A stretch of DNA of 64,000 nt from an uncultured bacterium (GTDB lineage: Bacteria > Muiribacteriota > UBA6191). The stretch spans positions 5,844 to 69,843 of the forward strand of contig CAZDAM010000003.1 in assembly GCA_964503595.1 (NCBI GenBank). The letters are read 5' to 3'. How positions within the stretch are numbered: the first letter of the stretch is position 1; the number at the start of each line of letters is the position of its first letter. The position numbers were made by a program, and so were the translations under genes. Of this stretch, positions 37,758-63,700 are shown piece by piece. Under the pieces are notes generated by a model, which saw only the letters and a list, made by a program, of their open reading frames with translations, made no database searches and had not been told where the DNA came from.

Positions 37758-39902
37758 TCAGAATTGGTAGCGCTTCTGAAGAAGCTGTTTCAGAAAGAGC
37801 ATGAATTGACCCATCACGGAGGAATCCGCCAGCTCGATACGGATTTCCCCGGTGCGCCCGTGCAGGGTTTTGAGGTTCTCGTGAGGATGGAAGACGGCCC
37901 TGGCTTCAAAGAAGGATTCCTGGGTCTTGAGCCCGTCTTCTCTTTCCACGGCAATATCACCGCCACCGTACCAGCCCAGAGCCATGGAGGGAAGTTCATC
38001 CTTTTCATGGGGAATAACAGTAAACTGGGTGACGGGCAGGGTGATTTCGGACTGCCCCCTGAATTTGAGGCTGGCCTGGGGCTCTTTGAGTTCGAACAGG
38101 TCGTAGGCGTTTTCCTGGGAAACAACGGCCACGAATTCAAGATCCTGAGACGGAAGGATGGCCCCGAGTTCGGCTCCAGCCTTGGCCCAGGTGCCGAGGT
38201 AGCGACGTAGATCCGGGGCAATCCAGGTGCCATTGGTTTTGGCCCGCACGGTAAGTTTGTCCCTGCGATCCTTTAGAAGATCCAGCTTGCGGCCGAGAAA
38301 GGCAATGCGTTCGGAGATGGGCTTCAAATCGGCAACCCGGTTTTCGCGGGCCTTGATTTCAAGCGCTTTGGATTCCTGAATCTGGGCCCCTACCAGCAGA
38401 ATTTCCACGTCCAGATCCGGGTTTTCCAGGCGGGCCAGAATCTGATCCGTCTGAACCACGCTGCCACTGGGGGCAATGATTTCCTTAAGAATACCGGGGG
38501 TCTGATTGTGGATGCGGGTGTAGTCACGAGCATGGATAACACCGGGAGCCCGGATGGAATTGGACATGGGGACATAGAAGAGGAGTCCGATCAGAAGGGA
38601 GATGGTCAGAATGGCGAGGCTTACGGCCCTGAGCCGGACCATTTCCAGGGCCGGATCAAAAAACAGGTAATGTATGAGGTTGTAAACAGGCTTGAGGAGC
38701 CAGGTCCAGGCGGAGATGGCCACGATGATCAGACCGACTTCAAACCACTGGTCCAGAACAAACAGGGCAATCCCGGCAGAAAGCAGAACCCGGTACGCCT
38801 GGGAGGCGAAGCCATAGGAAAGGAGCCAGAAGGACTCGGTGGCACTTGAGGCGGCTCTTTCGATATCCGGCATTCCCAGGATTTTACTTTCCAGAATATA
38901 GCGCCATTCCTCGCGGGATCTCTGGGCCAGATTCGGAATTTCGAGAACATCAGAGAGGATGTAATAGGAATCCAGACGGGTCAGGGGATTTCCATTGAAA
39001 AGAAGGCTTGAAACGGAACCGATGAACATCAGGTTGAAGGCCAGGCTGTTGATGACTCCGGGGCCGGTATGAGACCAGACAATCGTGGCCAGAGCAGCAA
39101 TGAAGAGTTCGACAATCATGCCGGCGGCACCAACCAGGGCTCTTTGCCAGCGGTTTCGGAAGGCCCAGCTTGAAGTGGCATCCATATAGGGCAGGGGAGT
39201 CAGAATCAGAAACATGACCCCCATGGTGTGAACTTCCCCCCCGAAGCGGCGGGTAGCCATGGCATGACCCATTTCATGCAAAAACTTCAGTCCGGCCAGA
39301 CAGATGTAAAGCAGAAAGATATTGGATGGGGCAAGGACTCCCTGGCCACTCTGATAAAGGGCCTGGGGGTTTTCCAGGGCGTACCAGAACCCGGTGAAAA
39401 CCACTAGGGCCCAAACCAGAAACCCTCCCCTGGAGAAAATCATTCTGGTGACATTGTCGTAGCGGACAAGCCAGGTGTGGGGATCCCACAGGGGCATGCG
39501 AAAGAACAGGAAGGACTGGATCTTGCTGGTCAGCTCCTTCTGTTTGGTGCGGGAATAGCGCTCAAAAACGGCCTCTGTATCCGGGGAGTTTTCCACATAA
39601 AGCAGGTTTGAGAGATGAAGCTGGGAGAGGAGACGGATGACGGCGTCCTGGGATGGGGTGTCATCCGGGTTTTCCCGGAGGGATTCTTCCCAGAGATCAT
39701 GCACGGTGGATTTGGGGTTCAGGCGCATGACAAAGCGGTAGGCCTCAGGAGAGAGGCGAAAAAAGCGGGAATTGAAGGGGTCTCTTAAGACGTAGCACAT
39801 TTCCCCACGAAAGAACTGTTTGTGGCTTTGGATGGCGCTGTGAATTCCGGCCCGAAGTTCGGCAACCCGATACCAGGATTCACTGAATAGATTCCCGATC
39901 AT
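37758..39902 (-). CDS. Fusion protein: polytopic M50 (site-2-protease-like) zinc metalloprotease domain plus C-terminal HlyD-like periplasmic adaptor
   Basis: 'HEMGHAM' HExxH sits inside a hydrophobic segment with multiple TMs. The C-terminal 300 aa has biotin-lipoyl-like 'VQTDQILARLENPDLDVEIL', a coiled coil and a beta-barrel. A 4-nt gap to the neighbouring genes. Confidence 0.7.
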   Translation of the reverse strand: MIGNLFSESWYRVAELRAGIHSAIQSHKQFFRGEMCYVLRDPFNSRFFRLSPEAYRFVMRLNPKSTVHDLWEESLRENPDDTPSQDAVIRLLSQLHLSNLLYVENSPDTEAVFERYSRTKQKELTSKIQSFLFFRMPLWDPHTWLVRYDNVTRMIFSRGGFLVWALVVFTGFWYALENPQALYQSGQGVLAPSNIFLLYICLAGLKFLHEMGHAMATRRFGGEVHTMGVMFLILTPLPYMDATSSWAFRNRWQRALVGAAGMIVELFIAALATIVWSHTGPGVINSLAFNLMFIGSVSSLLFNGNPLTRLDSYYILSDVLEIPNLAQRSREEWRYILESKILGMPDIERAASSATESFWLLSYGFASQAYRVLLSAGIALFVLDQWFEVGLIIVAISAWTWLLKPVYNLIHYLFFDPALEMVRLRAVSLAILTISLLIGLLFYVPMSNSIRAPGVIHARDYTRIHNQTPGILKEIIAPSGSVVQTDQILARLENPDLDVEILLVGAQIQESKALEIKARENRVADLKPISERIAFLGRKLDLLKDRRDKLTVRAKTNGTWIAPDLRRYLGTWAKAGAELGAILPSQDLEFVAVVSQENAYDLFELKEPQASLKFRGQSEITLPVTQFTVIPHEKDELPSMALGWYGGGDIAVEREDGLKTQESFFEARAVFHPHENLKTLHGRTGEIRIELADSSVMGQFMLFLKQLLQKRYQF

Positions 39903-39905
39903 GTT

Positions 39906-41753
39906 CTACCACCAGAGGTACAGACGCATGGTGTCCGTAATGCGGTGAAACAGAATCCAGCCGACACTGCGTCTTCCGGCCTTGATGCGGGCCAGGCCGC
40001 TCATGCCGGGTCGCCACCAGCTTTCCGGGCTCTCTACGAACCGGGCCTTCAGTTCGAAGGTGTTCCCGCTTCTGGGGTCTACTCTGGCAACAGGGACCAG
40101 GGTTTCGATTTCAAAGGGGTATTTCATCTGGGGATTGCTCAGAAGAGCCATTTCTCCCTGTCCGGGAACGGTAATCTCATCAATATCTCTTTCGGGAACC
40201 TTCAGGATGAGATACATGGCCTCAGGCTGGGCAATCTGGTACAGAAGATCGCCTTTGTTGATGGGGGCGCCCATCAGCTTTTCCTTTTCCCCCTCAACAA
40301 TGACTCCATCCTGAGGGGCCTTGAGATCGGCCCTGTTCAGGTAGAACCGGACCCGTTCCAGCTCGGCTTTGGCCTGAGCCAGACGGGCTTCGGAGATATT
40401 CATGTCTGCGAGTCGGCCATCGGCACGGGCCTTCTGGGTTTCCCTCTCATAGCGGGTGACTTCGGCCTGGGCTTCGGTGATTTTGAGATGGATTTCCTCG
40501 GTGTCGATCTGAATCAGGGTCTGGCCTTTGGTGACGGTATCCCCGCTATGGGCCAGTACATTCAGAATCACTCCGTCCATGGGGGAGGAAATGTAGGAAA
40601 TCAGATCGGTTTTGAGTTCGGCTCCGACTTCCACATCATAGTCCCAGGTGCCAAAAGTCAGAAACAGAACAGAGGCGAATCCAATCAGGGCCAGGAGCTT
40701 GGCAAAGGAGTTCTCCGGGCCCAGAAGCCACTGAACCTTGTCCTTCAGATAGTTTTTGAGGCGCTCGCCAGCCCATTGATCGTCGGCATGAAGGCGGGCC
40801 AGAACCGGGGCGCTTTGATTGGCAATCAGTCTCAAGGCCATGATTTCCTGGGGGTGGAACCGGCTTGAGGCCTTTTCAATGGTCAGAACTCCGGCGGGCT
40901 CATCCCTGAATCTTAGGGGGAGGCTGATCACCTGAAAGGCACCGCACTGGGACAGAAACTGCTGGTGGGCAGTCTGAATGGTTCCGGGATCCTCATGTCC
41001 GGGGCAGAGGATCTCTTCGTTCTGATCCAGGCTCTCTTCCATGGCATTGGCCAGACGGACACAGGCTTCGGTCTGGGAGTCAAAGCGCTCGAGATGGCTG
41101 ATGGCCTGAATTTTGATATAGGGGTTCTCATGCCAGCCAAGGCTGACCCGGGATACCTGAAACCGGGAGCAGAGATCGTTGACCAGGCTCATGGAGGCCA
41201 GCTGAAACCGCTCGGCCTTCAGAAGCTGGCTGATGACTTCAAGGGAAGAACCGATCATGCCCTGTTCGCGGGTTTCCCCTGTGTCAGGCAGATTTTCCTC
41301 ACTGATCATGGCCAGCAGTCTGGTGCGGATCAGGAGCTCATTCAGGGCTCTTGAGGGCAGGGGGCCCAGAGCCAGAATGATCAGGTGAGGGGTCTGGGAA
41401 CGTTGAGTTTCGTAGGCGATCACGTTCTGAAGTTCGGGAACTTCGGTGCGGATTTTTTCCAGGGCACAGCCTTTTTCCCTCACCCTGGGCAGCATATCCC
41501 GTCCCGATTCGGCGAGCTGTTCCATGAGGGAATTGGCGTGTTCCTTCGGGTTGAATACGGCATCGACCTGAATCTGCTCTGGGCCGGGAGAAAGAATCAG
41601 TCCGGTGTCAGCGCTACAGATTCCACATACGATTCGCAGATAATCGGACCAGAATGCCTCACTTTTTGGCATCTGGCGCAGGGTTTGAAGTTCTGAAAAA
41701 TACTGGGTCTGGTTCATGGGGAACTCGATTCTTCCGGTTCCGAATTTTCTCAT
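39906..41753 (-). CDS. HlyD-family membrane fusion protein with a roughly 330-aa cytoplasmic N-terminal (GAF-like?) domain
   Basis: Single TM 'LLALIGFASVLFLTFGTW'. Then 'GDTVTKGQTLIQIDTEEIHLKITEAQAEV' lipoyl-like, a coiled coil, and a C-terminal beta-barrel 'ARIKAGRRSVGWILF'. Confidence 0.65.
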   Translation of the reverse strand: MRKFGTGRIEFPMNQTQYFSELQTLRQMPKSEAFWSDYLRIVCGICSADTGLILSPGPEQIQVDAVFNPKEHANSLMEQLAESGRDMLPRVREKGCALEKIRTEVPELQNVIAYETQRSQTPHLIILALGPLPSRALNELLIRTRLLAMISEENLPDTGETREQGMIGSSLEVISQLLKAERFQLASMSLVNDLCSRFQVSRVSLGWHENPYIKIQAISHLERFDSQTEACVRLANAMEESLDQNEEILCPGHEDPGTIQTAHQQFLSQCGAFQVISLPLRFRDEPAGVLTIEKASSRFHPQEIMALRLIANQSAPVLARLHADDQWAGERLKNYLKDKVQWLLGPENSFAKLLALIGFASVLFLTFGTWDYDVEVGAELKTDLISYISSPMDGVILNVLAHSGDTVTKGQTLIQIDTEEIHLKITEAQAEVTRYERETQKARADGRLADMNISEARLAQAKAELERVRFYLNRADLKAPQDGVIVEGEKEKLMGAPINKGDLLYQIAQPEAMYLILKVPERDIDEITVPGQGEMALLSNPQMKYPFEIETLVPVARVDPRSGNTFELKARFVESPESWWRPGMSGLARIKAGRRSVGWILFHRITDTMRLYLWW

Positions 41754-41910
41754 GGATATCCGGATTTGACCAGTTTCGCTTTATCGATTCATAAAGTTCA
41801 TTTAAGGTATTGAAAATAGATCATTTCTATTCTTACGTATGGTAGAATTGTCCCCTGAATTTGCCGATTTTTCAGGTGTTAGAGATAAATTTAGGTAGTA
41901 CAGGAGTCCT

Positions 41911-42660
41911 ATGTTTAAAAAGATTGTGCCGATCACTAAAGATGCCCATAAGAAAACAAAGATCAAAGCGTTGGCAAATTTCGAGTTTGCGAAGGACGTC
42001 AACCTTGCGGCCGTGATGGTCCATGAGTTTTCCCGTGCGGCAGCGACTTACCCGATTGTGTTTCTGGAAGACAAGGAAAAGGACCAGTTCCGTCCTACGG
42101 TTCTTCTGGGCCTTGAGCAGGGCGAAAACCTGTTTGTGAAGGAAGGAAAGTGGGAGGCTTCGTACATCCCGGCCATCATCCGCCGCTATCCTTTTGCCCT
42201 GGCAAATACAAACGAAGCGGATAAGTACACAATCTGCCTCGATGAAGGCAGCGATCTGGTTAATGATAAAGACGGCCAGGAGCTTTTCGACGGCAAGGGC
42301 GAACCAAGTGAGCTGATGGAGCGCGTGAAGCGCTATCTGGGCGAGCTTCAGCAGATGGAGCGTTTCACTCAGGAGTTCTGTGCAGCGATGTCCCATCTGA
42401 ACATGTTCACTCCCCTGAATATGAAAGTGCGCCTTGGCAATGAAATCAAAAACATCAATGGGGCCTATGTCATCAATGAAGAGCGCCTGGGCTCTCTTTC
42501 GGATGAAAAATTCATCGAGCTTCGCAAGAAGCAATACATTCCGGTGATTTACTCCCACCTGAGCAGTCTGTCCCAGATTGAGCGTCTTCTGACCTTCAAG
42601 GACAAGAAGGGTGGAGTGACTCCAGATGCCATCGAACAGTTCTCGGAGACCGTGAATTGA
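41911..42660 (+). CDS. SapC family protein
   Basis: About 250 aa with 'YPIVFL' and 'PAIIRRYPF' blocks, which I recognise as the SapC family (named from the Campylobacter fetus S-layer secretion locus). Divergent from the HlyD/SecA-like operon. Confidence 0.6.
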   Translation: MFKKIVPITKDAHKKTKIKALANFEFAKDVNLAAVMVHEFSRAAATYPIVFLEDKEKDQFRPTVLLGLEQGENLFVKEGKWEASYIPAIIRRYPFALANTNEADKYTICLDEGSDLVNDKDGQELFDGKGEPSELMERVKRYLGELQQMERFTQEFCAAMSHLNMFTPLNMKVRLGNEIKNINGAYVINEERLGSLSDEKFIELRKKQYIPVIYSHLSSLSQIERLLTFKDKKGGVTPDAIEQFSETVN

Positions 42661-42788: not shown

Positions 42789-45700
42789 ATGAGCTCAAAA
42801 ATGAAAAGCCTTGTCAGAACCCAGACCTACATGAAAGCACGCCGCTTTTTTCAGAAATTTACGAAGAAGAAGGAGGCCGCTCCTCAGGTGCTTGATGGCA
42901 GACGGGAACGCTTCCGTCTGGACAGCCTTGAAGAGAGAGTTCTGCTTTCAGCAGATCCGGTTACGGAGACGGCTCATGCGATTTTGCACGAACCTCAGAA
43001 GAACGAGTCCCGAATTGAGCTTTTAAGTGAGGCTTCCCTGCGTCAGCCTACCCTAAGCCTTCAGGAACAGCACCCTCAGGCCGCAATTGTTCTGGATGCC
43101 GGCACGCTTTCCCAGAACAGAAATTCCCTGGAATCCTCCCTTGTGATCGGCGAGAACGAAGTTCTTGGCGGCAGTGGAAATCTGGGCATTCACCTGATGA
43201 ATGATGGCACCGTTGCTCCCGGATATTCTCCCGGAGTTCAGAATGTAGCCAGCTTCACCCAGGCCGAAGGTGCGACCCTTGAAATCGAAATCGGGGGCAG
43301 TGGGGTTGCCGGGGCCTCCGATGGTTTTGATCAGCTCAATGTCTCCGGTCTGGCAAGCCTTGGTGGCAAGCTTGAAGTCACCCTTCTGAATGACTACAAA
43401 CCTCAGGTCGGAGACACTTTCGACATCCTTACCTTTGGCTCGGTGAGCGGAGAATTTGATTCGGTAGGCGGTCTTTACGGATTTTATGCAGATTATTACT
43501 TCGATGTGGTGCAAAAATCCGATCGCATTCAGCTGGTCGTCAAGGAGCTTTTGCCCGGAGATACCTTCGAGATTGCCGCTGACGAGGCCTTTCGAGATGC
43601 CATGTCGGAGTTTCTGGCTCAGGATTATCTCAAGAAGCCGACTTCCATTACCTTTACCGGCTCCATTGATCTTGGAGATGCCTTTTCGGTTGGAGGCACC
43701 TTTACCCTGAATCAGGTCAGCACCGGTCAGGATGTCACTTTAAGTGATGGGTCCACAGTCAATGTTTCGATCAAGACTCTGGGGATGCGGGGCGCTTCAG
43801 CTTCTTTGGGTGGAAGCTTCGGCCTTCAGTTCGGCGGAGCTGATCTGGGAATTGCCATTTTTGATGCAACTTCCGAAGAAGATGGCCGCAGTTGGGTTGG
43901 AGCCCAGGGAAGTCTGGAAAGCGTTTCTCTTTTGAATCTTGGAAGCTACGGCATCCAGGGAGAAAACCTTCAGCTTGACATCTTCCAGGCCCTGGGAGAA
44001 GACAATGATGTTTTAATCGATTTGTCGGAAACCCCGTTGAGTATTTCTGATGGCAGTGGAACACTGGCTGAATTCTCCAATGACGGAGTTTTTGGGGAGT
44101 ATCTGAACGTGGCTGGAAATCTCCAGCTCACCATGCCTTTTTTGAATGTCTCCGGAGATTTCTTTGTCTCCGCGGATGATGCCTCCCTGTTTCTGGCCGG
44201 AGAAAATGTCACCGCTAGCTTTGAAGCCGGAGGCATGACTCTGGGTGTAAACAATGCCCGCTTTGGGGCCTACATTTTTGAAGATCAGAGCATGGTTCTG
44301 GAAGCAACCGGTGGCCTTGTCATGAGTGGAGGCGATTTCACGCTTCCTACTGGCGATTCTGTGAGCCTCAAATACAACACCACTGGCATCGAATTCACCG
44401 ATCTGGAAATGGCGATTGGGGAGAGATCCTTCACTTTTGGAACCATCGAAGCTTCCGAAGAACTCCTGGAATTGAGCATCAGTGGCTTTGAAGCCAACCT
44501 GGGCGGAGTGTTCGGGCTGTCCGGAGACTTCGGTTTCCGCAAAAACGGGGAAGATCTGAATGTGGTGGCTCAGAATGCTGCCGTAAGCCTGAATGCTGGC
44601 GGCTTCAAGGCTGGAGTGAAAGACGCCACCCTGGGTCTGAAAATGAGCGATCTGGGAACCGCCATGGAAGCAACCGGCGCGGCCTGGTTTGAGCTTGGAG
44701 ATGCAGTTTCCCTGAGTGCTGACAGTGTCCAGGTGCTCTATAACGAAACCGGAGAAGACCTGATTGGAACCAGTCTCTCGGCTGCTTCTCTGGAATATAC
44801 CTTTACAGCAATTGAGGGTTCGACGACCCTTCAGCAAGTGGCTGTAAGTGGGGCCAGCCTGGAAGTGGCCGGCTTTGTGCAGGCCAGCGGTAATCTTGCC
44901 GTCAAGCGGGATGAAGTTGCTCTGGAGCTTTCGGATGAGTCCCTGGTTCTGGCCGAGCTTTTGACCATTGGTGGCAAGAATGTAAGCGCCTTTGCCGGCC
45001 TGAATGGTGGCTCTTCCTCCGCTTTGGGCCTTCAGATCAGCGCCCTGACTTTCGGGGTCGCCCTGATGAGCGAAATCGATGGTGAGGAGAGAAGCTGGAC
45101 AGCCGTCTACGGGGAAGCCGAATCCGCCGGATTTGTCGGTCCAGACAGCCTCACGATTTCTGCCAGTGCCCTGAAACTCGAACTGAATCTGGCCTCAGAA
45201 GACGGCCTGGTAGTGGATTTCTCGGAATTCAGTCACAGCGTTCCCGTTGGTGTGGGCGAAAGCCTCAGCCTTACGATGGACGCTCAGCGGGGCGAACTGA
45301 TCAGTGTCAGTGGCAACCTGAACATCCGCATCTTTGATTTCTTCGCCGTCTCCGGAGGCTTTGCCCTGGAAAAATCCACAGAAACTCTGAGGCTTTCGGA
45401 TGAAAGCGAAGTGGAAGTGGAGCTTCTGACTCTGGGAACCCAGGGAGTCTCGGCTTTTGCCGGTCTGAATCATGGCAGTGACAATGCCTTTGGTTTCTCT
45501 TTGGGAGATGTGAGCCTGGCTTTGGTCATGGCCACAGAAAAAGAGGATTCCTCCCAGTCCTATGTGAGCCTGAAAGCTCAGGCTGGCAGCGTAGCCTTTG
45601 AAGGAATCCCCGGAATCACCATTGCCGCAGATACCCTGGCCGTGGAACTGAACCTGGCATCAACAGAAGGTCTTTTGGTGGACTACTCCACCAAAGCCCT

Positions 45701-48700
45701 TACCGTACCCACGAGTTCTTCCACCAATATGAGCCTCACTATGGATTCCGAGGATGGCGAGCTGGTACGCGCTTCCGGAAATATGGATCTGGATCTCTTC
45801 GGCTTTGTGCAGGTTTCCGGGGGCTTTGGTTTTGAAAAGAAAACTGAAGTGGTGACTCTGGCTGATGGCAGCGAAGCCGAAGTCGATCTGATGACACTGG
45901 GGGCAAATGATGTCTCCGCATTCGCCGGAATCGCAGCTTCAAGCTCAAGTCGGGTGGGCCTTGCCTTAAGCGGACTGAATTTCGGTCTGGCCCTGATGTC
46001 CGATAAAAGCCGGGATGATCGCTCCTGGCTGGCCCTGAAAGGAAATGTAGGGGCTGCCAGTTTTGAGGGAATTCCTGGAATGGAGCTGGCCGCAGAATCC
46101 CTCAAGCTTGAAATCAACCGCTATACCGGAGAAGAAGGCGCATCCACAACCGAAACGATTGTGGAAACCTCCACGGAAACGGTCACGACGGAAAATACTC
46201 AAACCACCACAACAACAACCAAAACCGACACGATCTACAAACTGGATCTGAATGGGGTTGTGGCTCCGATTACTTTGAAACTGGGCGGAGAAACAGCCAC
46301 GATTCAGGTAAGCAAAGGGGCCGATTCGGATTCATTGCTGACCTCGATCAGGCAGGCTCTGGAAGGTTTTGCTGCCATTGGCGAAGGCAATGTTACCGTA
46401 AGTGGCAATCTGGTGGCGGGCTTTGAAATCCGCTTTCTGGGCGATCTGGCGGGAACTTCGGTGGAAGGCCTGAGTGTTGAGACCAGCTTCTTTGAAGTTT
46501 CCACAAACAGCTCGGAAACAAAGAATGCTCTGGTGGGCCGAAGTGAAAGCCAGACTCTGACTATTTCCAATCCAACCCTCAAGGGTTCGGGACGCTACAC
46601 CTTAAGTCTGGATGGCAAGAGCACCGGCGAAATCCGTTTTGCCGGATCCGATGTGGGCAACAATGCCCGCTATATCCGTGAGGCTCTGGAAAAAGTTTCC
46701 GGTATTGGAGCGGGTAATGTGAAGGTGGTCTACGACCAGAACTCCTCCACAACCAGCCAGCGCTATATCATCACCTTCAAAAAAGGTCTGGCCTACACCG
46801 ATATCAGCCTGCTTCAGGCCAATAACAATGGTTTGAAGAATGCGATTGTGGCCGTGACTCCGGGGCAGGATGGTTCCGTTGCCAGAGGAGAAACCAACCG
46901 GGTTTCCATCAATACCCTCGGCGATGTGGATCTGAACCTGCGCTTCACGATCAACGGCAAGGAATACCGCACGGATTATTTTGAGTCTGACTCTTCCGCC
47001 GACAAAGTGAAGTTCATGATTGAGCGGGAAGTCTACAGGGATGATATTGAAGTCCAGGTGACCGAGATCGCCAAAGGCACCTGGGACATCACCTTTGGAG
47101 GGGCTGCAACTGGGGTTTCCCTGGATGATTTTCTGGTGAATACATCGCAAAGCATTGAGTCTGCCAAGCTTCTGGTTTCCCAGATGGGTAAGACGGATGT
47201 AGAGACGGAGACGACGACTACCAGCAGCACGGAAACCATTGAGGTGGAAGAGACCACGGTTCTGGAATATCCGGCAGATGTGGTGGTGGACTTCTCTGAG
47301 AGCAATCTTGATGTTCTCACCGGACCCGACGCGACCATTGGGATTGATTTTGACGGAGATCTTGGAAATCTCCTGAGAGCTTCCGGAAATCTGAATATCA
47401 ATCTGTTCAATTTCTTCTCGGCATCCGGGGCTTTTGCTCTGGAAAAGTATGCCAGCGAAGTGACCCTGGATGATGGAAGCACCCTGGAAGTGGATATGCT
47501 CACCATCGGCGGGCATGGAATTGATGCTTTCGCGGGCCTTAACGGAGGAAGCCCTTCCCGTGTTGGCTTTGAGCTCGAGGCTGCTGATTTTGCCCTGGCG
47601 ATTATGACTGGCGTGGAAGACCCGGCTCTTCAATACACCAGCCTTCATGCCAGTGCCGGAAGTGCGGCTTTTGTTGGCTTTGACAATCTCAGAATTGCGG
47701 CAACCGACATCGAGATCCAGATCAATCAGGCTGATGAATACGGCTTTGTCGTGGACTGGCTGAAATCTCCTCTGGCCCTGACGACTGGCCCTGATTCTTC
47801 CACAGAAATGAATATGGATGGCTCGCGTGGAGAGCTTCTGAGCCTGTCGGCCAATATGGAAATCGATGTGGCCGGATTCTTCATGGTCAACGGACGCCTG
47901 GCCTTTGAAAAGTATGAATCCGTTGTGAAGCTTTCGGATGGCAAGGAAGCCGCAGTCAATCTGATGACGATTGGCGGCAAGAATCTCAATGCCTTTGCCG
48001 GAGTCAACGGAGGCAGTTCCGATCGGATGGGGATTGCCATCGACAATACGGAATTCGCCCTGGCCATGCTTCAGGAAAAAGGCGAAGGAGGCCGTAGCTG
48101 GACTTCTTTGAAAGCAACGTCTGATTACGCTGGCCTGGTGGGCCTTGATGGAATTCTGACGCTGAACGGGCAGGGCATTGCCGTCAATATCAATGACAGT
48201 GCTGAGGATGGCACGGTTGTGATGTATGGCGAAGAGGGCATGGCCATTCGGACCAGCGCGGATACCTCGCTGATTCTTGATATGAACCACCCAGGCAAGA
48301 TCATGCGGGCTGAAATCTATCGGGCTACTCTGGATATTGGTGGTTTCATCCAGATTCTGGGTGGAATCTATTTTGAGAAGGCCGAAAACGTCGAAGTGGA
48401 TGTTCGTACCGGCCTGCCGCTGGACTTGAGTGCCAATACTGGTTTGAGCTCCATCAGCTCGGATCTGCAACGTCTTAAGAATGATGGAATTCTGAGTGAG
48501 GACAATCAGACTCTGACCAATCTGAAGGTGGATTCCCTGACTTTTGGAGCCGGAGACGTTGATGTCTTCGTTGGCTACGGCCCTTATTTTGTGGATTCCA
48601 ACAATGATGGTGTCATCGATAGTCATGACACCCCCAACGAGGATGCATTCGGGTTTTCCCTGGAAAATATCGATGTTGGCTTTGTCACCATGCAGGCGGC

Positions 48701-51700
48701 CAAATCGGTGGATCCGAACGGCGTCATTCCCAAGATGTTTGCCCTGAAGGCGTTCTGGGCGGATCCGCTTGATATTGACTGGGGTTTCTTCAAATTTGAT
48801 ATCGATAATCTGATAGTTGAAGCGAACCAGGGTTCCAAGTGGAAGGGCACCCAGGCCACTCCATTCATTGATTTTGCCTCAAGCTTTGAAAACGGCTATG
48901 CCATTCCGACCCCAGGCGGCGATTCGGACATCGTTCTGGATTACAGCTCCTCCGTGATCGGAGCGTCTTTTGGACATACGCTTCTATCGATTGAGAATTT
49001 CTTCACGATTGAAGGTTCCTTCGCATTCTACAAATACGGTGGCATCACCGTTGATATCGCTACCGGACTTCCCGGAACCCTGCCTACCGGAACTGACGGA
49101 AATACCCGTACCGGTCTTCAGCAGCTGAAGAGTGCGGGCTATCTCTCGGATGACAATTCCCGCATCATGGCAATGCCGATGAATGTGATCACCATTGGTG
49201 GAGATCAGGTCAATATCTATGTGGGCGATGTGGATGATCCATTGCTCTCCTTCACCGACATTGATTTTGGAATTGCCCTTTATACCGCTGATAAGGGAAT
49301 TGATACCAAAGGGATCATTCCCCGCATGTATTCCATGCGCGCTTCCATTCCGGATGCCGTTGATATCGACTGGGGCTTTTTGCAGCTTGAAGTCAAGGAT
49401 CTGGTCCTAAAGGCCAATTCCGGAAGCCAGTGGAAGGGCCTGACCGGTCTGAAGCCCTATGTGGATTACACCACAAGTTTTGAAGAAGGCTTTGCCATTC
49501 AAACCGGAAATGAGCCCGTTATTCTTGATTATAACCGTGGCTTTTTGGGCGTGGAAATGGGTTATGCCCTGGTGAATATCGGGGACTTCCTGTTTCTGAA
49601 CGGCTCCTTCAATCTGGAAAAGACCGACAACGTTGCGATCGATATCGTAACCGGATATACCTCATCTTCCTTCTGGACCGCTCCTTCCAAGGTTCAGGCC
49701 GGTCTTCAGAAGATGGGTGGATTGTCTTCGGACAAAACCCGCATTGAAGATATGACGATGTCCGGCTTTGTTCTGGGCGGGGACAGTGTCAATGCCTTCA
49801 TTGGAATGGGTCCTTACTTTGAGGACACCAACGGGGATGGCCGGATCAATTCGGATGATGTCAGAAATGATGGTGCCATTGGCTTTGCCGTGGACAATCT
49901 TGATATTGGTCTGTCCATTTTCAAAAGCATCAAGGCTCTGGATCCGGACAAGGTCCTGCCGACATTCTATGCCCTGAAAGCCAGTGTGGATGCGATCGGT
50001 CTGGTTGGAATCGATTTCTTTGAACTCTCAGCCGAGGGCGTGACCCTCAAGGCCAATTCCGCGAGCAAGTACAAAGGTGCCCAGGTCAGTCCCTGGATTG
50101 ACTTCACTCAGAATTATCCTGATGGATTTGAAGTTTCCAAGGGCAACGGGGAATCCGTCTTCCTGGACTTCAGGGATCCGATTCTGGGGATCAATGTTGA
50201 ACGGGCCACCTTCATCATTGATAAATTCATTCATATCCAGGGAGCCTTCTCCTTTGAGCAGGGAGCCCGTCACCGTGTCAGTGTCGATACGGGAGTGAAT
50301 ACCTTCACAGGCTCTGCTCTGGCGGGCACTCTTGCCCAGCTGGAGCTCAAAACCGATGCTGAGGTCTCTTCCGACTGGACCCGGATTGAAAACCTGGAAG
50401 TGATTTCCACCACGATTGCCCTGAGTGATGTGGATGTTTTCGTAGGCTTCGGGGAACCTGATTTTGATCAGGACTTCAAAGAGCAGGACGATCTTTTCGG
50501 CTTTGGTATCAAGGACGTGGATCTGGCCATCGGCATGTTCAAGATTGCTGCCGACGTCAAAAACTTCCCGACTTTCATGGCCCTTTATGGGGCATCCAGC
50601 CAGTTTGAACTGTTCACCGGTCTTGATTTCTTTGAGTTCTCAGGGGAAGCCCTTCAGATCGAGCTGAACAAGGGAACCAAGTGGAAGGGCTCCGTTGCAG
50701 CTCCGACCATCAATTTCAAGGACAGTTTCCTGCCAGTTGGTGATAAGCCGGCTGGAATGGAGACGGTTGCCGGAACCGAAAGTTTCTACCTAGATTTTGC
50801 CGGTCCGGTCATTGGAGTCCAGGTCTTTGATGCTGTCATGAGAATTGACGGCTTTTTGCACATCGCTGGTGATTTTGCCTTCCGCAAGGAAACCACCAGG
50901 CAGACCATTAAAACGACTCTGGGATCCTATGAGGATGTAAACCTTGAGGCCATGAGCATTGCGGCCAATGATGCCTACCTGTTTGCCGGTCTGAGCTATT
51001 ACGATTTCTCTTCCGGGGAAATGGAGACTCTGGTCGGGGTTGAACTGGAGAATGTGAATGTCGGAATCGGTATGTTCAAGCCGACTCTGGACAATTCTCC
51101 CCTGATTACATCCCAGAAATTCCAGTTCACCACGGTCAAAGCCCATGCCGATCGGGCGGCCCTGGTAGGAATTGAAGATCTTCTGACTGTGGATCTTCGT
51201 GATATCACGATTGAAGCCAATCTTGGCAAAGGCAGCAATCCACTTCTGAAGCCTTTCATTGATTTCTCGGAAGATCCCTATGTGATTGAAGTTGGTGGAG
51301 AAGAAGTCGTCTTTGATTATGACAACAGCTGGCTTCTGGCATCTGTTGGTCTGGCCCATCTTCAGCTTTCCCAGTTTCTTTACCTGCATGGCTCTCTTGC
51401 TATCAGCAAAGCTGGAGCCCGTGAAGTCAAGGTCAATGCCGGGGAGTTCTCCTCTCTTCTGGGTGGAGATACGGTGACCCAGAGTGTTGAAACCATCACC
51501 ATCGGCGGACAGGATCTTTACGGTTTTGCCGGAATCGGCGGACCTTACCGCGAGGATTCCAACGGGGATGGTGTGATTGATGATCAGGACGGGGTCAATG
51601 ACTCTGCTCTTGGGGTCAGTCTGGAGGATGTGGATTTTGGGGTTGCCGTGATGACAACGGTTCTTCCCGGAGGCCTTCCTGCCAAGGGTCTGCCGACCTA

Positions 51701-54700
51701 TGTCGCGACCAAGGCCCATGTTGGACGGGCTGCCCTGATTGGTATGGAAGAGTTTCTGGATGTGGAACTCAACAAGGTGGAAGTCAATATCAACACTTCC
51801 ATCATCAAGGGACTGCCACCTCAGGCAGCTCTGGTGGCCCGCCTTCCGAACATCAATTTTGAAGAGTCCTTTGAAGAGGGTTACTACGCTGTTCCTACCG
51901 GGGCGGATGATGTCCTCATGGACTTCAATAATGAGCTGATTGAAATTTCGATTGGCTATGCAGAAGGAAACCTGGCCGGAATTCTTCAGCTCAGCGGTTC
52001 CATGGCCTTTTCCAAGCGGGGCTCGGAAGAAGTGACCTTAACGGATGGAACCAAGAAAACGGTTTCCACTCTGAGTCTGGGGATTGGAAATGCCTACGGC
52101 TTTGTCGGCTACGGAGGTTACTGGAGAGATTCCGATGGCAACGGCAAGATCGATGAAAACGATATTCCGAATACCTCAGCTGTAGGCCTTGCCATTGAAG
52201 ATTTGAATGTTGGCGTTGTATTCATGCGCGCCATTGACAATACGGATGTCTATGTCGGAGCCCAGGCCGATCTGACCAAGGCCGGATTCGTCGGAATTCC
52301 GGGAGTTACCTTTGAAGGCCGTGATTTCAGCCTCAGCCTGAATGCTTCCGTGACCGGTCCTGCCGTGGATTTCTCGGTATCCGGTGCAGATGGTGGGGCA
52401 TATCATGTGAAAACCGGTGAATTTGATCCGGAAACAGAAGAAGAAATCGATATCCTTCTGGAGCATGATGAGAAGCTTCTGGCAGCCCAGGGTGTTGCTG
52501 AAATCAACTTCTTTGATGTGGTTCAGATTGACGGAGCCTTCGATATCACAGTCGCAGAGTCCGGCATTGTGCTGTTTGCGGATGGCGATGCCTTCATCGG
52601 TGCGGGTGGCATTGGAATGTCCACCAGTGTGACCGGTCTTGTGGCCATTGAAGATGGTATGGCCATGCGTCTGAATCTGGAGCAGGGTCTGGATCTTGGA
52701 CCTCTGGCTTCCTTTGATGCGGAATTTGAATTCCGGATGAATACCTTTGGCCGGGACTATGTCTATGTGGTTCCGGAAAAACTCAGGGAGAAAACCGGAT
52801 TCGATGAATTCGTGGTTTCAGCCAAAGCACCCGGACAGGATGAGGTTTCCGATTTCTATGTCTCCCTGACCGGAGAAGGACACCTGAGTCTTCTGAGTGC
52901 TCTTGATATTGATGGTGAATTTGCAATTGTCTTCACCGAAGACAGTGCCCGTCTGGAAATCGGCGGCATCATCGATATGCCTCTGTTTGAACCTATCGGT
53001 GTTACCGGAACTCTCGGGTTTGAGGATGGCGGGCTTTACGGAGCTCTTCAGCTCGGACATCCATCCGGTTCGACTCTGATTGATGCGGGAGTTTTCTCCA
53101 TCAGCGGTTCTTTCCTGCTTCAGATCAATACGACATCGGAAACCCAGACCGTCAAGGCTCTGGACTTTTCTGAAGACGGAACCATCATTGGTTTCACTAC
53201 CAGAGAGATTGCCGCGGAAGAACTCTATATCGCCGGAACTGCATCGATTGAGCTGGCCGGATTTCTGGAAATGTCCGGCTCCGCAAGCCTGAGGCTGAGT
53301 TCTGAAGGAGTGGAAGCCGATCTGGCCATGAGCCTGGATCTGGGAGCCTTCGGAAGCCTGGAATTCAAAGGTGCTGCCGCAATTCTGAATACTGAGGATG
53401 AGGGCGCGGTCTTTGCCCTGAGCGTGGAAACCAATGTTGTCCTGGGCATGGATATTGTCGGAATTCAGGCTGGAGCCCTGCTTCAGATCAATACCAGCTC
53501 CATGCACGAATATGCAGGTGTTCAAGCCGGAACCACCTTCCTTCTGGAGCTCGACGGGGCCCTGAAGCTTCTGGCCTTCAATATCGATTTTGCCGGATCG
53601 ATCAGCGTGATTGACGGCATCTTTGAACTCCGAGTTGATGAAGCCAGTCTGAGCTTCTTCAATTTCGTGAATATTGAAGTCAGCGGATATTTCCGCTCGG
53701 ATGGAAAATGGAGAGTCAGTGGCGAAGCCCATATGAACATTGACATGGGTCCACTGGAACTCAGTGCCGGCTTTGAACTCACGGTCGGGCACGACATCTT
53801 CCGGGCAAGGGTCTATGGTTCTTTGGATATCAATATCGATATGGGGCTTTTCTCCATCAATGAAACCCTGGCAGGTTTTGAGGGTCTGATTGAAATCACG
53901 GAAGCCTCGGCCCACCTGAAAGCATCCGTTACCATTGTGGGAATCAGTGTCTCCGGTTCCATGACCTGGAGCTGGGGTGCTCCTCCGGTGATTGCTTCCC
54001 AGGTTGGCGACACCGTCATCCTTCACATGGGTGATGATGCTGACAAACGGGGCGATCTCTATCTCGACATCGTCAACGAGACCTATCACATCGAGGAACA
54101 GAAGGGAGTCCTGACAGTCCGCGCCATGGGTGAAACCATGGAATTCCGCAACGTGAAGCGGATTGTCGCCAAAGGTGGCAATGGCAATGACACCATCATT
54201 GTTGGCACGGGTGTTACCGCCAAGCTCGAATTTGATGGAGAAGACGGAACGGACACTCTGCTGATTGCCGGAGGTGCTGAGGGCTCTGTCATTCGTGGTG
54301 GTGCCGGCAATGACTATATGGTTGGTGGAAACGGCGGCATCTACTATTACGGGGATGGTGGCAATGACACCTTCATCGGGGGCGATGGCGGCGAAATCAT
54401 TGACATGGGTACCGGCAAGAACACAATTACAGCTGCCGGTGGAAATGACGTTATCTATATCGGAGCCGGGAATAACACGGTAGATGCCGGTTCTGGCAAT
54501 GACACCATGTATGTGGGCTGGAACGGGTATCTGGAGCTCACTGCCGGATCCGGAGAAGACATTGTCATCATGGATACCCTGGCTTCCAACGAGTCCCTGA
54601 AATTCAAGGATCACAGTCTGGAATACAGCTTAAGGGCCATGGACTTCGGTGATGATCTCGAACTGATTCAGATCAGGGATACCGCGGCGACCACAAAAAT

Positions 54701-57700
54701 CGAGAACAATGGTGTGGACAGCTGGGGTTCCACCGGGCTTTATCTGGAGTCGTCCGGAGTGCTGGATGTCACCGAAGCAAGTCTGATCATGCCCAAAGGG
54801 CAGGTTACCCTGATTTCTCAGGGCATCAACGGGGTTCTGAACACCCAGATCGACACGCTTACGGTTGTAAACCATGCCACAGGTTCTTACGCGGACATTG
54901 TCATTCGTGAAGTCGATGATCTGAAGATTGTGAAGAATGGTCTGGCCCAGGGAGGCATCTATACAGCCGGGGGTCAGATTGATATTCAGCTGAATGCCCA
55001 CGAAGCCAATCTTCATCTCGAATCCGGAATCATCCGGACCCATGGAGCCGGAAAAGGCATTCGCATTGTTGCCGATGATGTGGACTTCAATTCCGGTAAA
55101 GACATGGTTACGGCTTCGGGGCAGTTTGAGCTTCTGACCCGTTCCCAGTCTCAGGGTTACCGAATCGGTGGCGCTGGTCAGTCCTCCTTTGGCAATGACT
55201 ATACCCTCGGCTGGGATAACGGCTACCTGAATTTCTCCATGAAAGACGTGGAAGCTCTGACTGACGGCTTCAGTCTCCTGAAATTCGGCACCGAAAATTC
55301 CACGGCCCTGATGTTTGTCGGGGATCTGGAAAATGCTGACGTGGATGTGAAGCATTTTGATGCCAAAATCACGGATGTTGCGGAATTCCATGCCCGCCGG
55401 ATCAATATCGTCGGGGATGTTCAGGCTTCCCAGAAGGTGACTTTTGCCTCCGAACTCCTGGAAATCTGGCGAACCAATATCAACAATCCGTTCGGACAGC
55501 CGGACTCAGGGATTACAGGCACCGAACTTGTCCTGAATATCAGTGAGCAGATGCTGGTGACCGGCTACATCCGGGCCGAGGACAGCCTGAAAATCCGGGT
55601 GAATGGATCGACGGGTCAGGGTGCCATGGTGACCTATGGAGCCGAGCCGAATTCCTTCACGGCCGATCAGGGCAGTTCGATTGTGACCCTGAATGATGGT
55701 GCCGTCCTTGATATTGAAACGTCCGGCTCCATTTACAGCGCCACGAATATCGAGGTCATGGGCAAGAACTCCCAGCTGAAGATGAAGGCGGGAACAGGAC
55801 TTACCATCCTGGAAGGAGCCGTGGTCGCGGCCCGTTATGACAACAGCTCGATTCTTCTTGAATCCAGCAAGTATCTCCACATCAATTCTGGTGGAGCGGT
55901 TACTGCGGGAGCCCGCTTTGATGATATCAACGGGGAACCGGTTGCCGTAAAAACCGGGGCAAATGCTTCCATGACCCTGAAAACTTCCGGGGAAATGAAG
56001 CTTTCCGGCTCGATTACAGCGTCGGGAAGTATGGAACTGAGTGGGGGCGGGGCAGAATCCGACTACAAAGATTACTTTGATACGATTCCCGGAAAAGTAC
56101 TTGGAAAAATGGTGGCATCGGATACGGTGCTGGCAGCTCTTCAGGCTGGAAACATTGATTCAGCCTTAAGGCAGCTTTTCGCTGAAAATCATCTGGATCT
56201 TGGCAACAGTGTCAGCGTGAACGGAGTCGGTTCCTACACTTCTTTCAATGATCTGACTCCGGAACAGAAAGCTCTGGTGGCTCAGGCTCTGGGCTATACC
56301 GTCTATGAGGGCACCAATTACTACAATCCGGATGCGCCTGCTGGAAGACAGCTGATTGATGCCTTCATTGAAGGCAACAGTCCATTCCTGCAACCGGGAC
56401 AGACTCCCGCGGATCTGGGCTATACCTGGCATGCAGGCACTTTCTTTTACAACCCGCTCACCGGAGAAATCCTCAGTGGTTTCAAACAGGGTGTGTCCGC
56501 AGACTATGACAATGCGGATATCAACTGGGGCAGTGCGGGAGCTCCCGCTTCCGGCACCGGTTTTGATGCCCTTACCGCAGATCAGAAACTCAAGGTTGCA
56601 GCTCATCTGGGATACCAGACCGATGATGGCAAGGATTTCTATAACTTCAATGCTGTTCAGGGTAAGAAAGTGGTTCGCACCTTCACCCAGGGACTGGTAA
56701 CCCAGTACCGCAATGCGGATATCTACTGGGGCAATGTTGCCAAGCCGTCGGATTCCCAGTCATTTGCAAGTCTGAGCGCTGAACAGAAAGCTGTTGTAGC
56801 CAGAACTCTTGGTTTTGAGATGGTCACTGGGGGCGCCTATGTAAATCTCAATGCCAGTGCCGGCTTACAGGTGGTTTCACAACTGACAACGGCTCCAGCG
56901 GATTACCGGTTGTCCCAGATTGATTTTGCGGGAGTTCCGGCTCCTCAGGAAGGGACAGCCTTTGAATCCCTGACTCTGGAACAGCGCAATCATGTGATCA
57001 GCGCACTGGGATACGAAGTCTTTGAAGGTCTGCTCTATATCAATCCTGAGAGCGGATCTCTGGTCACGACATTTACCAGCTACAACGGGGTTGAGTGGGG
57101 CGATGATCTGGCGGCTCCGGCCGAAGGCACGCCATTTGAAAAACTGTCCGGCCAGCATCAGCAGAAGGTTCTTGAGAGTCTTGGCTACAGGGTTTTCACC
57201 GGAACGGCCTACTACAATTCCGACGCAATCCCAAGCAAGCAGTTTGTGCAGGGTTTTGTCGAGGGAGTGGACTATCTGAATTCGGCCATAACCTGGTCCA
57301 GGGTAGAGATTCCGGATGCAGGCACAGCCTTTGAGGACATGACTGCCAATCAACAGAATGCCCTCCTCAAGTCCCTGGGCTATGAAGTCCACAACAACAC
57401 GGTCTTTTACAAGGCAGGAGCTCCGCTTGAGACCCGCCTGATGACAAATTTTGTGGAAGGTCTTCATTACAATAATGCTGATATGCCTTGGGGCGAGTCC
57501 GGAACGGCCGTGACCAACCGCTACATTGTGAATGACGGAACAAATCAGTACGTCATCTACACTCTGGATCAGGAAAATGATGGAATCATCGATGAGATCC
57601 AGATCCAGAAACCGCATGAGCTTCTGGGCCAGCGTGGGTATGGATTCCTGCTGACCGGTACGATTACAACACTGGAAGATGGCCGGGATCTGGTCATTGC

Positions 57701-60700: not shown

Positions 60701-63700
60701 CGGCGGAACTTCCTCCTCTGGTGGTCTGATTGTGAACAGCTTTGCCTTTGATGGCAATGATCAGAGAATCGCGGGGGGAACCCTGAATACGGCTCTGAAT
60801 GGCACGATGGTGATCGAGGCTGTTGGCACGATTTACCTCAAAGGGGTTATAGGTCAGCTGGATGGAAGCAACAACGCGATCACTTCCTCGATTTCGGTGG
60901 ATTCCACTGCCGGCGATGTCACGGTAACCGGTCTGGTGGATGCCAGAGATTCCGTAACCATGCTTGGAACGGATCTGAACATCATGCAGGATGCCCACGT
61001 ATTCGCTCAGAATACAGGGGCTCAGGTTCTGATGGATGCCCGCGATGAGCTCTATGTCCAGTCTTCTCAGGCCAGCGGGAATTCCGATGGTCTGGTTTAC
61101 GCTGACAATCTGCTTCATTTAAGAGGCGGGAGCGTTCAGATTGACGGGATTGTGAAGTCGCTTGCGGCCAATTCCCAGATGTTCATTCATTCCGCAGATG
61201 ATCTGATTGTACGTGGACTGGCTCAGTCCGCCGGTAGCGCCACTCTGGCAGCCGGCGTTTCCAGAGACGCTACTCTTGCGACCCTAAGAGCCGGTGTGAC
61301 GACCTCAAACCTGCTTGGAGGAAATGTCCGCATTCTTGGTCAGGGCATGGTGGAAGCCGTTGGCAATGCCAGTGTCCAGGCAGGCCAGGATGTCATTATC
61401 AGTGCCGATTCAACGGTGGCAGGAACCCGGGTCGTTCAGATTCCGGTCATTACAACGGTCGAAGAAACCATCACGGTAACTGTGGGTTACCAGGAAGTTG
61501 CTATCGGGACTGTTTCTGTGCCCGTAATCAGCTGGGAAACCAGTTCGATCACCGAGCAGATTGGAACCGAGAAGGTCAAGGTGGGTGCCGAGAATCTGCG
61601 CATGGATGTCACCCTGCGCCAGACCGGTTACTACAACCCGAATGCTCCGGAAGGTCAGAAATTCCGTGAGATTCTGATTGAAGGCATTGATTACCATAAT
61701 GATGAAGTGAACTGGAACAATGCCGGGAATGAGGCGACTCCAGGTCGTACTTCCGAAGCGGTAACAGCGAATTATAAAGATGCCAGCTATAAGGGATTTA
61801 CCAGCCTGAACGATGCTCAGCGTCAGGCCGTTTTGAACCATACGGGCTACATGAAGCTCTATCAGTTCACCTATGCCAATGCCATCCTGGAAAAAACCCT
61901 GAATGGAAATTACACCGAAACTGCCGTGACTCCTCAGTGGGCAGGCAACGAGCAGGTAATCTACCGTATCGAGGTCGATGGCTGGAAAGACAAATATATC
62001 CAGATGCCCAAAGGTGCCCAGAACGACATTCTGAATGTGGTCACTCAGGGCGAGGCCAAATACCTGACTGGTGATACCACCCGTAACGGGAATAATGATG
62101 GAACCTGGGTCAGTGCTTCTTCCAATCCGGGAGGAGAGCTGGTAGGTCGTTACAAGGATCAGTCCGATGTGAATTACACTCAGGATCGTTCCGACTATTA
62201 CTTCCCAAATGATGGCTACCCTTCCGGGTATCTGAGTCCACATGATGCGGAAGAAGATGGAGAAGCCCGCTGGGATGTGAACTATTCCTCGAATTCCGGA
62301 TATCGTCATTTTGATGTGGAAAGCCGCAATGACAATAAATCCATGATGCGGGATCCAAACTGGTTCTGGCAGGGTACGGCCAAAGCTGACGGCGATGATG
62401 ATTACACAACCGGTTTTGACAATGATCGCTATACCCAGTACATCTGGGCCCAGCAGGATTTCCTGAGCACGCTGTCAGCCGATACGGCGACCTTTGAAGA
62501 AAAATCGACCTCGGTCCGTCAGGATCAGGAAGCTTTCAAGTTCAAGTACTGGAGCAGCTGGTACGGTCTTGGCGGCTACTGGATGGACAATGACGATGGT
62601 TCTGAGATGCCCTATGGTGAAGAGGAAGATGTTCCGACCTGGGGCTGGAGGGATCTGACTGCTGGTGATGAGTCTGTTCTGAAAAGTGTCTGGACGGGTC
62701 ATGATGTCTCCGGTGATAACAACTGGCATCACGATGGGATGAATTTTTCCCACAATTACCTGACAGCGGGCAATTTTTCGAACTGGAAGTCCAATTACCA
62801 GTGGCTGCAATCGACCAGTGTTTACACCACCCAGTTCGGTGGGGATGATGTCGGAGGGTTTGTTCGGGGTAAGTTCGAATACACCCCGGATGACTACGTC
62901 CATGTCGGTGGAGATGGCATCCATAAACGTCCGGTCGTTCTGCAGGATTACAACGACTATGTCTATGACTGGATTTCCGATTGGCATGATATCTATGATC
63001 AGAGGATTCAGCTTCAGTATGAGCTGGTGACTCAGTCTCAGGATATCTTTGACTACCGGCCGATTTATGAGACCAGCACCAAGCAGGTCAAAATCACCCA
63101 GTTTGAAAATCAGACGGTCTGGGAACGTCAGGCGATCACGGATACGGAAACGATTACCTGGACCCAGCGGGATTTCCAGAACGGGGATACCCGTTCCTAC
63201 GGGGAATTTGATGGGGAGTCTCTGAAAGGCTCTGCCATCACGATTTCCACAAACCGTGATGTGACGGTCAGCGGTCTGGTCACGGCAACAGACAGCCTGC
63301 TTGTGAACAGCGGGCGCAATGCTACGGTTCAGGGGACGGTGGCAAGCGGTGCTGAACTGGCTTCCCAGTCCCGTTTAACGGCGGCAAACAGCATCACGGT
63401 CGAAGCTGAGAGCAAGCTGAATCTCATGGATTCAGCCAAACTTGAAGTGACGGCAGCTGACAGTGATATTGTTCTGAAAAGCTCTGGCACTATGAAGGCC
63501 GGCGGTGAAATCCTGGCCAAGGATACAGTGACTTTGAAAGCTGCTACCGATCTGGAGCTTTCAGCATCCATTCAGGCCGGAAATCTGGTAGAGATTAGGG
63601 CAGGGGATTCGACTGTCGGAGATATTCTTGATGGAGACATCACGGCCAATATCTCGGCTCAGATTATCGTGACAGAGGCAGGCTCTGACATTGTCATGAG

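Follow-up and report, generated by a model that had tools for sequence, protein, structure and literature searches.

A rare family of tandem repeats of about 65 residues in a giant acidic protein encoded by an uncultured Muiribacteriota bacterium

A string of diverged small domains in a giant open reading frame

A 64,000-nucleotide stretch of DNA from an uncultured bacterium of the Muiribacteriota lineage UBA6191 (GenBank assembly GCA_964503595.1, contig CAZDAM010000003.1, positions 5,844 to 69,843; this whole stretch is referred to as the window) encodes a protein of more than 7,000 residues, which carries an array of tandem repeats at window positions 56238–57512 on the plus strand (residues 4511–4935). 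The repeats are real and form an old, diverged string of small domains in a family without a database name. The main array comprises five complete units of 58–67 residues and one split unit, and a degenerate pair of partial units, D1 and D2, lies about 1,400 residues downstream (61617–61919). A structural role in a giant secreted-type protein is tentatively favoured for the array.

The repeat had been noticed in a preliminary description made from the sequence alone, which placed at least seven copies of a unit of roughly 55 residues at 56150–57500 and one more at about 61590–61720. All of the peptides quoted there are present in one plus-strand frame, within a single stop-free stretch of 7,097 codons (42708–63998) that is open at the 3′ end of the window, and all coordinates of the array and its distal copies fall within this one giant open reading frame (ORF). 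Residues are numbered along the stop-free stretch, residue n beginning at window position 42708+3(n−1). The array was thus located correctly apart from its bounds, which are corrected to 56238–57512. The count of seven agrees with the number of hidden Markov model (HMM) matches, yet these are made of five complete units and one split unit, and the unit length of 55 residues was too short. The distal copy exists, but as two partial units, at 61617–61733 and 61794–61919.

Unit boundaries were set first with a local HMM of five units and then with profile A1, which gave the seven main-array matches. The bit scores given for individual units come from a leave-out HMM built from 106 units of homologous proteins without any window sequence. 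With this model, nine matches were obtained in the window at 14–77 bits, against a best domain score of 1.4 bits in 200 whole-protein shuffles. The split unit is made of R1 (56238–56381, residues 4511–4558; 55.9 bits), which holds the helix and the first hairpin and covers profile positions 1–48, the N-terminal two-thirds of a unit, and R1b (56412–56555, residues 4569–4616; 40.6 bits), which holds the second hairpin and the 'DYxNADIxWG' end and covers positions 17–67, the C-terminal three-quarters. The complete units are R2 (56556–56756, residues 4617–4683; 76.6 bits), R3 (56757–56954, residues 4684–4749; 61.6 bits), R4 with a shortened loop (56955–57128, residues 4750–4807; 33.1 bits), R5 (57129–57323, residues 4808–4872; 71.4 bits), and R6, the last of the array (57324–57512, residues 4873–4935; 63.1 bits). 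Among the distal partial units, D1 (61617–61733, residues 6304–6342; 27.5 bits) consists of the hairpin and the Trp loop, profile positions 24–64, and is linked to the array by BLASTP as well, while D2 (61794–61919, residues 6363–6404) consists of the helix and the hairpin, profile positions about 2–31, and scores 14.2 bits over residues 6363–6392. All of these units are on the plus strand.

Comparison of 250-residue chunks of the protein by BLASTP linked residues 4501–4750 to 4751–4929 (32% identity, 80 bits) and the array to residues 6306–6435 (27–30% identity, 34–37 bits). At the DNA level, no tandem repeat was found over the array by Tandem Repeats Finder (TRF), and just 30–55-nt patches of 63–77% identity remain over the best-conserved motifs. 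In protein, the array units are 30–42% identical to R2 in alignment A1. The low identity of the units and the lack of a DNA-level repeat beyond these remnants indicate that the repeat is old and visible in protein only.

Unit consensus and predicted fold

The alignment of 106 units yields the consensus (A/T)xFxxL(T/S)xAQ(K/Q/R)xxVAxxLGYxxYxGxV(Y/F)(Y/F)NAxAxxGKQLVTTFxQGxxxDYxNxxIxWGxVxxPAxG. The most conserved positions are W58 (99%), Q10 (97%), F3 (95%), L6 and G46 (both 91%), V14, G19, and P64 (all 87%), Y20 (86%), and D50 and Y51 (both 83%), and L18, Y/F28–29, F43, I56, and G59 are also well conserved. The strongly conserved positions are thus mostly aromatic, aliphatic, glycine, or proline, as expected of residues that build the core of a small fold. 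The spacing by four of L6, Q10, V14, and L18 places them on one hydrophobic helix face, and the 'L(T/S)xxQ' motif at the start of the helix resembles an N-cap.

Structure prediction with AlphaFold2 gave a mean predicted local distance difference test (pLDDT) score of 72 and a predicted template modelling (pTM) score of 0.52 for the three-unit segment R4–R6 (nine alignment rows), and a mean pLDDT of 77 and a pTM of 0.36 for the whole array (21 alignment rows). In the R4–R6 model, block pLDDT values are 76–90 in R4 and 87–91 over most of R5; for R5 they are 72–91 in the whole-array model. The latter shows the same elements in each unit, namely a 3-10 turn, a helix of 10–11 residues, a hairpin, and further short strands. 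Its 10-residue block means are mostly 80–94 within units and about 68–83 in blocks that span linkers, and three internal stretches fall below 50 (residues 4555–4565, 4660–4665, and 4790–4793). As pTM reaches just 0.36–0.52, the models do not settle how the units are placed relative to one another. Each unit is predicted to fold autonomously, as a mixed alpha/beta domain of about 65 residues with one or two short strands besides the hairpin.

A short-unit variant was seen in the homologous protein P0004 (locus L002; homologous proteins are given P-numbers and loci L-numbers), in which residues 484–600 hold units of about 38 residues (LTAAQKAVVDKYVKFDQVLSAADWGNSIIPAANAAYGT) that keep the helix and the Trp loop and are missing the hairpin. 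The hairpin may thus be a separable insert in the unit.

Homologues and conservation of the array

When 1.84 billion cluster representatives were searched exhaustively with an HMM of the 14-unit profile, 110 homologous proteins were retrieved at E ≤ 1e-3, 64 of them at E ≤ 1e-10 and 42 at E ≤ 1e-30. With 110 of 1.84 billion representatives, the repeat family is rare. A word-indexed search with the 440-residue array returned five metagenomic fragments only, and the same kind of search with the 14-unit alignment returned no match, probably a prefilter limit for a short query. When a single protein was used to search for related loci, one GTDB genome was found, a metagenome-assembled genome (MAG) of Pseudomonadota (L001). 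In the stronger homologues, most of which are pieces of very large proteins, 4–11 units stand in tandem. Where homologues are named, the name is nearly always 'hypothetical protein', and a single fragment bears the label 'peptidase inhibitor family I36 protein'. The organism labels are mostly of Pseudomonadota and include MAGs called Oceanicaulis, Massilia, Moritella, Betaproteobacteria, Pseudomonadota, and Chlorobium.

Complete arrays in homologues have 5–9 units, and the split first unit seen in R1 and R1b recurs in P0007, P0008, P0010, P0011, P0014, P0025, P0032, P0053, and P0062. The position of the array between conserved flanks is kept across the family, as is the degenerate copy some 1,400–1,700 residues later. 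Identity to homologues is 30–41% in the array, 32–48% in the upstream flank, and 44–54% in the downstream flank, so that the array varies more than any other part of the region, both in sequence and in unit number (5–9). Membership in the family was judged by tandem units of about 65 residues that match the profile end to end, in a giant protein and between conserved flanks; the window has five full, two split, and two distal units, with flanks 32–54% identical to those of the homologues compared.

At locus L006 (JGI Ga0272440_1000091, 144–18867), a metagenome contig, an array-bearing ORF of 2,907 residues is followed, with a 4-base overlap, by one of 1,576 residues and after that by one of 9,250 residues, an arrangement that represents either a frameshift-split giant gene or a true multi-gene order.

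Comparison with named families

The repeat had been put forward as something other than a named domain, and this stood up to every search made: no valid match was obtained in Pfam-A (2025 copy), NCBIfam 20.0, or PADLOC, and no sequence relative was found in the PDB. The best match of the PDB sequence profile search had an E-value of 0.043 and was at chance level; the segments involved, from gamma-hemolysin B (E 0.043) and the C-terminal part of T4 lysozyme (E 0.1–1.4), were discarded. No fold match was found by Foldseek against the PDB (best E 1.1).

The sole recurrent Pfam match was PF13618, Gluconate_2-dh3. It matched the window array at 27.7 and 28.7 bits, above its whole-protein cut-off of 23.4, and it was also listed (E ≤ 1) for 11 of the 21 homologous arrays scanned. 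These scores are sums over a weak helix motif of about 35 positions, in which no single stretch is significant in these scans and the best covers positions 50–85 of 135. What is shared is a short 'F..L(T/S)..Q...V/L' motif that matches weakly in each unit. Gluconate_2-dh3 is the small subunit of a dehydrogenase and not a repeat in a 7,000-residue protein. The repeat accordingly maps to no well-described Pfam family.

Two other candidates fared no better. PF07813 LTXXQ (CpxP/Spy-like) was found in P0004 only, at 18.1 bits against a cut-off of 24.3 (E 0.0045, no significant stretch), and was absent from the scan of the window array. For PF01473 CW_binding_1, hmmscan with a limit of E 1 listed no match in the window array or in the 21 homologous arrays. 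The hairpin motif 'GYxVxxGxxYYNPxxGxxLVxxF' can be written in register with 'GWxxxxGxWYYxxxxGxMxTGW', which we take to stand for the choline-binding repeat. Against a LytA C-terminal sequence, hhalign picked this same register without statistical support (probability 0.46%, E 0.13), and the likeness was set aside. PF25934 DUF7979 appears as a precomputed label on P0002 and as a 'faint' one on P0004 and was not returned by the local Pfam scans, whose library copy may not include it; in the literature, DUF7979 is met in a haloarchaeal oxidoreductase context. For the array and its flanks, DUF6303, DUF7349, MgtE_N, DUF7552, GA, and LGFP gave sub-threshold or summed short-motif matches throughout.

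The giant protein and its distal module

The giant ORF probably starts at the ATG at 42786 (+) and runs beyond 63998, where it is cut by the window end, giving more than 7,071 residues. As the source contig is 77,270 bp long, the gene could extend up to about 13 kb past the window. Long minus-strand ORFs inside the giant-gene region are probably shadow ORFs. In the 7,071 residues counted from the ATG, there is no cysteine, the net charge is −524, and neither a signal-peptide-like segment nor a transmembrane-like or hydrophobic segment was found. The N-terminus is basic and is followed by an LEPR-XLL motif (RLDSLEERVLLSADP; 42912–42980 (+), residues 43–65 counted from the ATG; NCBIfam NF012209, 23.4 bits against a cut-off of 17). 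Calcium-binding nonapeptide repeats of the RTX type occur at 54408–54509 (+; Pfam PF00353, 31.7 bits against a cut-off of 23), and NCBIfam also yields partial RTX_toxin matches. The RTX block visible in the window sits mid-protein, away from the C-terminus, which lies beyond the window. These two short library matches are all that more than 7,000 residues give. Gly-rich, aromatic-poor stretches flank the array on either side, and aromatic residues make up 12.2% of the array against 3.4% of the shaft after it.

Directly after the array, the flank contains an EF-hand-like acidic loop, 'DQENDGIIDE' (57567–57596 (+), residues 4954–4963), read from the sequence. Comparable loops are present in P0001 ('DDDGDGVIDK', with a weak EF-hand_8 match at E 0.069) and P0005 ('DENNNGVFDS'). 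The loop may bind calcium. The lack of cysteine and of transmembrane segments, the strong negative charge, the RTX repeats, the LEPR-XLL motif, a Big_12 Ig-like domain in the homologue fragment P0071, and an adjoining gene for an HlyD-type adaptor, a kind of gene joined by outer-membrane-factor genes at comparable loci elsewhere, together give the protein an extracellular look and suggest an exported, calcium-binding surface fibre.

The N-terminal half holds a second, unrelated repeat family (residues 250–3250, window about 43450–52460), whose modules of about 190–200 residues show 26–50% mutual identity in BLASTP between 250-residue chunks. Their number is of the order of a dozen or more, as estimated from BLAST offsets, and they have no Pfam or NCBIfam match.

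Downstream of the array, a conserved distal module of about 650 residues (61455–63407 (+), residues 6250–6900) was delimited by phmmer matches. It starts with D1 and D2 and is rich in Trp, Tyr, and Asp, with 22 W, 41 Y, and a net charge of −49. Matches were obtained in P0014, P0015, P0017, P0019, P0032, P0066, and P0071–P0111, and P0100 holds two copies. Most of the weak family matches from P0071 onward (about 30, e.g., P0072, P0075, P0079, and P0081) concern the distal module only. The module has no Pfam match and no PDB sequence match.

Neighbouring export-type genes

Three export-type genes recognised with Pfam lie divergently upstream of the giant gene, on the minus strand at 35792–41753. 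They encode a SecA-like ATPase of 653 residues (35792–37753), an M50-like membrane protein of 714 residues (37758–39902), and an HlyD-type adaptor with a GAF domain (39906–41753), and probably constitute the export machinery of the giant protein. In Pseudomaricurvus alkylphenolicus (L003), the same set is found behind a 12,658-residue gene, and in a Cloacimonadota MAG (L004) behind a truncated large gene, in both cases together with a gene for an outer-membrane factor and one for a second adaptor. The M50-like proteins of the window and of P. alkylphenolicus share 48% identity along their whole length. In general, the set is composed of a SecA-like ATPase of about 650 residues, an M50-like protein of about 715 residues, and one or two HlyD-type adaptors, one of them with GAF. 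The SecA-like family has at least 8,000 matches at E ≤ 1e-20, which among the matches listed are about 625–830 residues long and sometimes misnamed 'prepilin peptidase'. From its gene content, the set looks like a type-1-like export machine in which the ABC transporter has been replaced. No description of such a set was found in a narrow full-text literature search, and at this locus it seems more unusual than the repeat. It may also be speculated that the LEPR-XLL motif serves as a recognition signal for the adjoining export genes.

Between the giant gene and the adaptor gene, a 228-residue ORF (41872–42558 (−)) has no Pfam match. It was considered as a counterpart of the short adaptor that occupies the corresponding position in L004 and shows no similarity to it. 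No called gene is recorded for this ORF, and it may be spurious. The sole Rfam match in the window at the gathering threshold is a tRNA gene at 11980–12051 (+).

Possible role of the array

The array is tentatively read as a structural segment of a giant secreted-type protein. This role is favoured on account of the conservation in core-type residues, the predicted autonomous folding of the units, and the variability of the array, which exceeds that of the rest of the region in sequence and in unit number. Arrays consist of five to nine units joined in tandem by short Pro/Ala-rich linkers, and the array of the window separates two long Gly-rich stretches of a giant, very acidic, cysteine-free protein. 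Such units could form a beaded, segmented part of an extracellular fibre, setting its reach and the bending between its rigid sections, possibly with stabilisation by calcium. Three kinds of observation weigh against a purely structural role. Polar positions, namely T/S7, Q10, N30, D50, and N53, are also strongly conserved, and a binding site is conceivable. Moreover, units u3, u4, u6, and u7 match the same-ordinal unit of P0007, P0008, P0010, or P0011 at 40–77 bits, against 35–45 bits for paralogous units of the same protein. The array is therefore older than the divergence of these proteins, and the identity and order of its units have been kept over a long divergence, which is unlike length-variable stalk repeats and hints at unit-specific constraints. 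Finally, the distal module headed by the degenerate copy could be a binding or catalytic head.

Ligand binding by the units, which the preliminary description had raised as a possibility, is supported by no result but is conceivable. In its explicit form, a repetitive ligand (polysaccharide, peptidoglycan, or the surface of another cell, for example) would be bound weakly by each unit, with tandem avidity as in LysM and choline-binding arrays. The aromatic richness of the units relative to the shaft, the conserved Asn, Asp, and Gln positions, and the retained order and identity of units among homologues are consistent with such a multivalent module. So are the rapid evolution of the array, the fastest in the region, which fits adaptation to a target, and the repeat copy at the head of the Trp/Tyr/Asp-rich distal module. 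Sub-elements also stand alone, the hairpin in R1b and D1 and the helix with the Trp loop in the 38-residue units of P0004. However, a 65-residue domain needs almost all of the conserved aromatics for its own core, the units have no likeness in sequence or fold to known carbohydrate- or wall-binding modules, and the resemblance to the choline-binding repeat found no support in hhalign. We regard multivalent binding as the less likely explanation beside the structural segment. A third proposal, which appears improbable, is that folding of the units is triggered by calcium. They would stay unfolded in the cytoplasm, where calcium is low, and fold on reaching the outside, which would help to draw the chain out in the manner of a ratchet and to stiffen it, as RTX blocks do. 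The protein is very acidic and cysteine-free, RTX repeats lie upstream of the array and the EF-hand-like loop directly after it, export-type genes adjoin the giant gene, and each unit contains a conserved loop of the form 'D-Y-x-N-x-(D)-I-(D)-W-G'. Within that loop, however, only D50 (83%) and N53 (66%) are well conserved and the other acidic positions stay below 40%. In addition, no known calcium-binding profile matches the units, and AlphaFold2 folds them without any ion.

Two further readings are essentially excluded. Assignment of the repeat to a described family, Gluconate_2-dh3, LTXXQ/CpxP-like, or CW_binding_1, could appeal to the whole-array PF13618 scores, the PF07813 match on P0004, and the hairpin register picked by hhalign. 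It is very hard to sustain when no PF13618 stretch is significant, PF07813 is below its cut-off and confined to one protein, CW_binding_1 is unlisted, and none of the three appears in the PDB-sequence profile search. Chance similarity, low complexity, or a non-coding frame might be suspected from the lack of a DNA-level tandem repeat, but is hardly credible for a 7,097-codon open frame in which units score up to 77 bits against 1.4 in shuffles and whose repeat recurs in 110 representatives from independent assemblies. At the other extreme, the unit could be a new small fold that serves as a multivalent recognition module, with individually differentiated units that recognise a repeated ligand at the surface of prey, host, or partner cells. 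It would then be confined to a class of giant LEPR-XLL proteins whose export relies on an undescribed type-1-like machine, with the SecA-like ATPase and the M50-like protein in place of the ABC transporter. We consider this combination unlikely.

Most of the sequence of giant bacterial surface proteins lacks annotation, and a clearly delimited domain of about 65 residues allows part of it to be annotated. A profile, unit boundaries, a confident model for each unit, and 110 homologous clusters define the family, and structural biology gains a target that is small and expressible. Ligand binding by the units, if it occurs, would also be a pointer to what such fibres attach to.

Comparison with known systems

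The array is most readily compared with the stalk or extender domains of giant surface proteins, such as the BIg repeats of RTX adhesins and the SHIRT, Rib, and G5-E repeats of the 'periscope' proteins of Gram-positive bacteria. As in these, small autonomously folding domains are arranged head to tail in a very large, acidic, secreted-type protein, and the copy number varies among homologues (5–9 here). In contrast to them, the unit is predicted to be a helix with a small sheet and not an Ig-like all-beta domain, and a handful of units stand mid-protein. The units are about 30–42% identical and have no DNA-level repeat. The near-identical DNA-level units looked for as the mark of the 'periscope' type were likewise absent, TRF finding none and the remnants measuring 30–55 nt. 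Given the positional orthology of several units, rapid length variation by recombination is not expected. LysM and CW_binding_1 arrays resemble the present one in their short, tandem, aromatic-rich units, but the present unit has a helix and a Trp loop in addition, neither family is among the Pfam matches of the arrays, and no fold match was obtained.

At the level of the whole protein, the LEPR-XLL giant proteins (NF012209) are similar in that the host protein is very large and bears the N-terminal motif above the cut-off. However, NF012209 covers a 24-residue N-terminal motif only and nothing of the repeat, and its name is scarce in the literature searched. The RTX nonapeptide repeats (PF00353) recall RTX adhesins and other type 1 substrates; unlike in those systems, the HlyD-type adaptor is present with no ABC transporter among the eight neighbouring ORFs scanned. 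SecA-like modules fused into giant Omnitrophota proteins have been described (West-Roberts et al., 2023; bioRxiv 10.1101/2023.11.21.568195). Those proteins and the present one are alike in that a giant, mostly unannotated protein is tied to a SecA DEAD plus preprotein-binding module; no novel repeat was found when that preprint was searched for one. They differ in that the SecA-like protein is here a separate neighbour of 653 residues and the giant protein has no predicted transmembrane segments. On present evidence, the repeat represents a new, unnamed domain family of an ordinary type, a tandem extracellular repeat in a giant surface protein, rather than a new kind of system.

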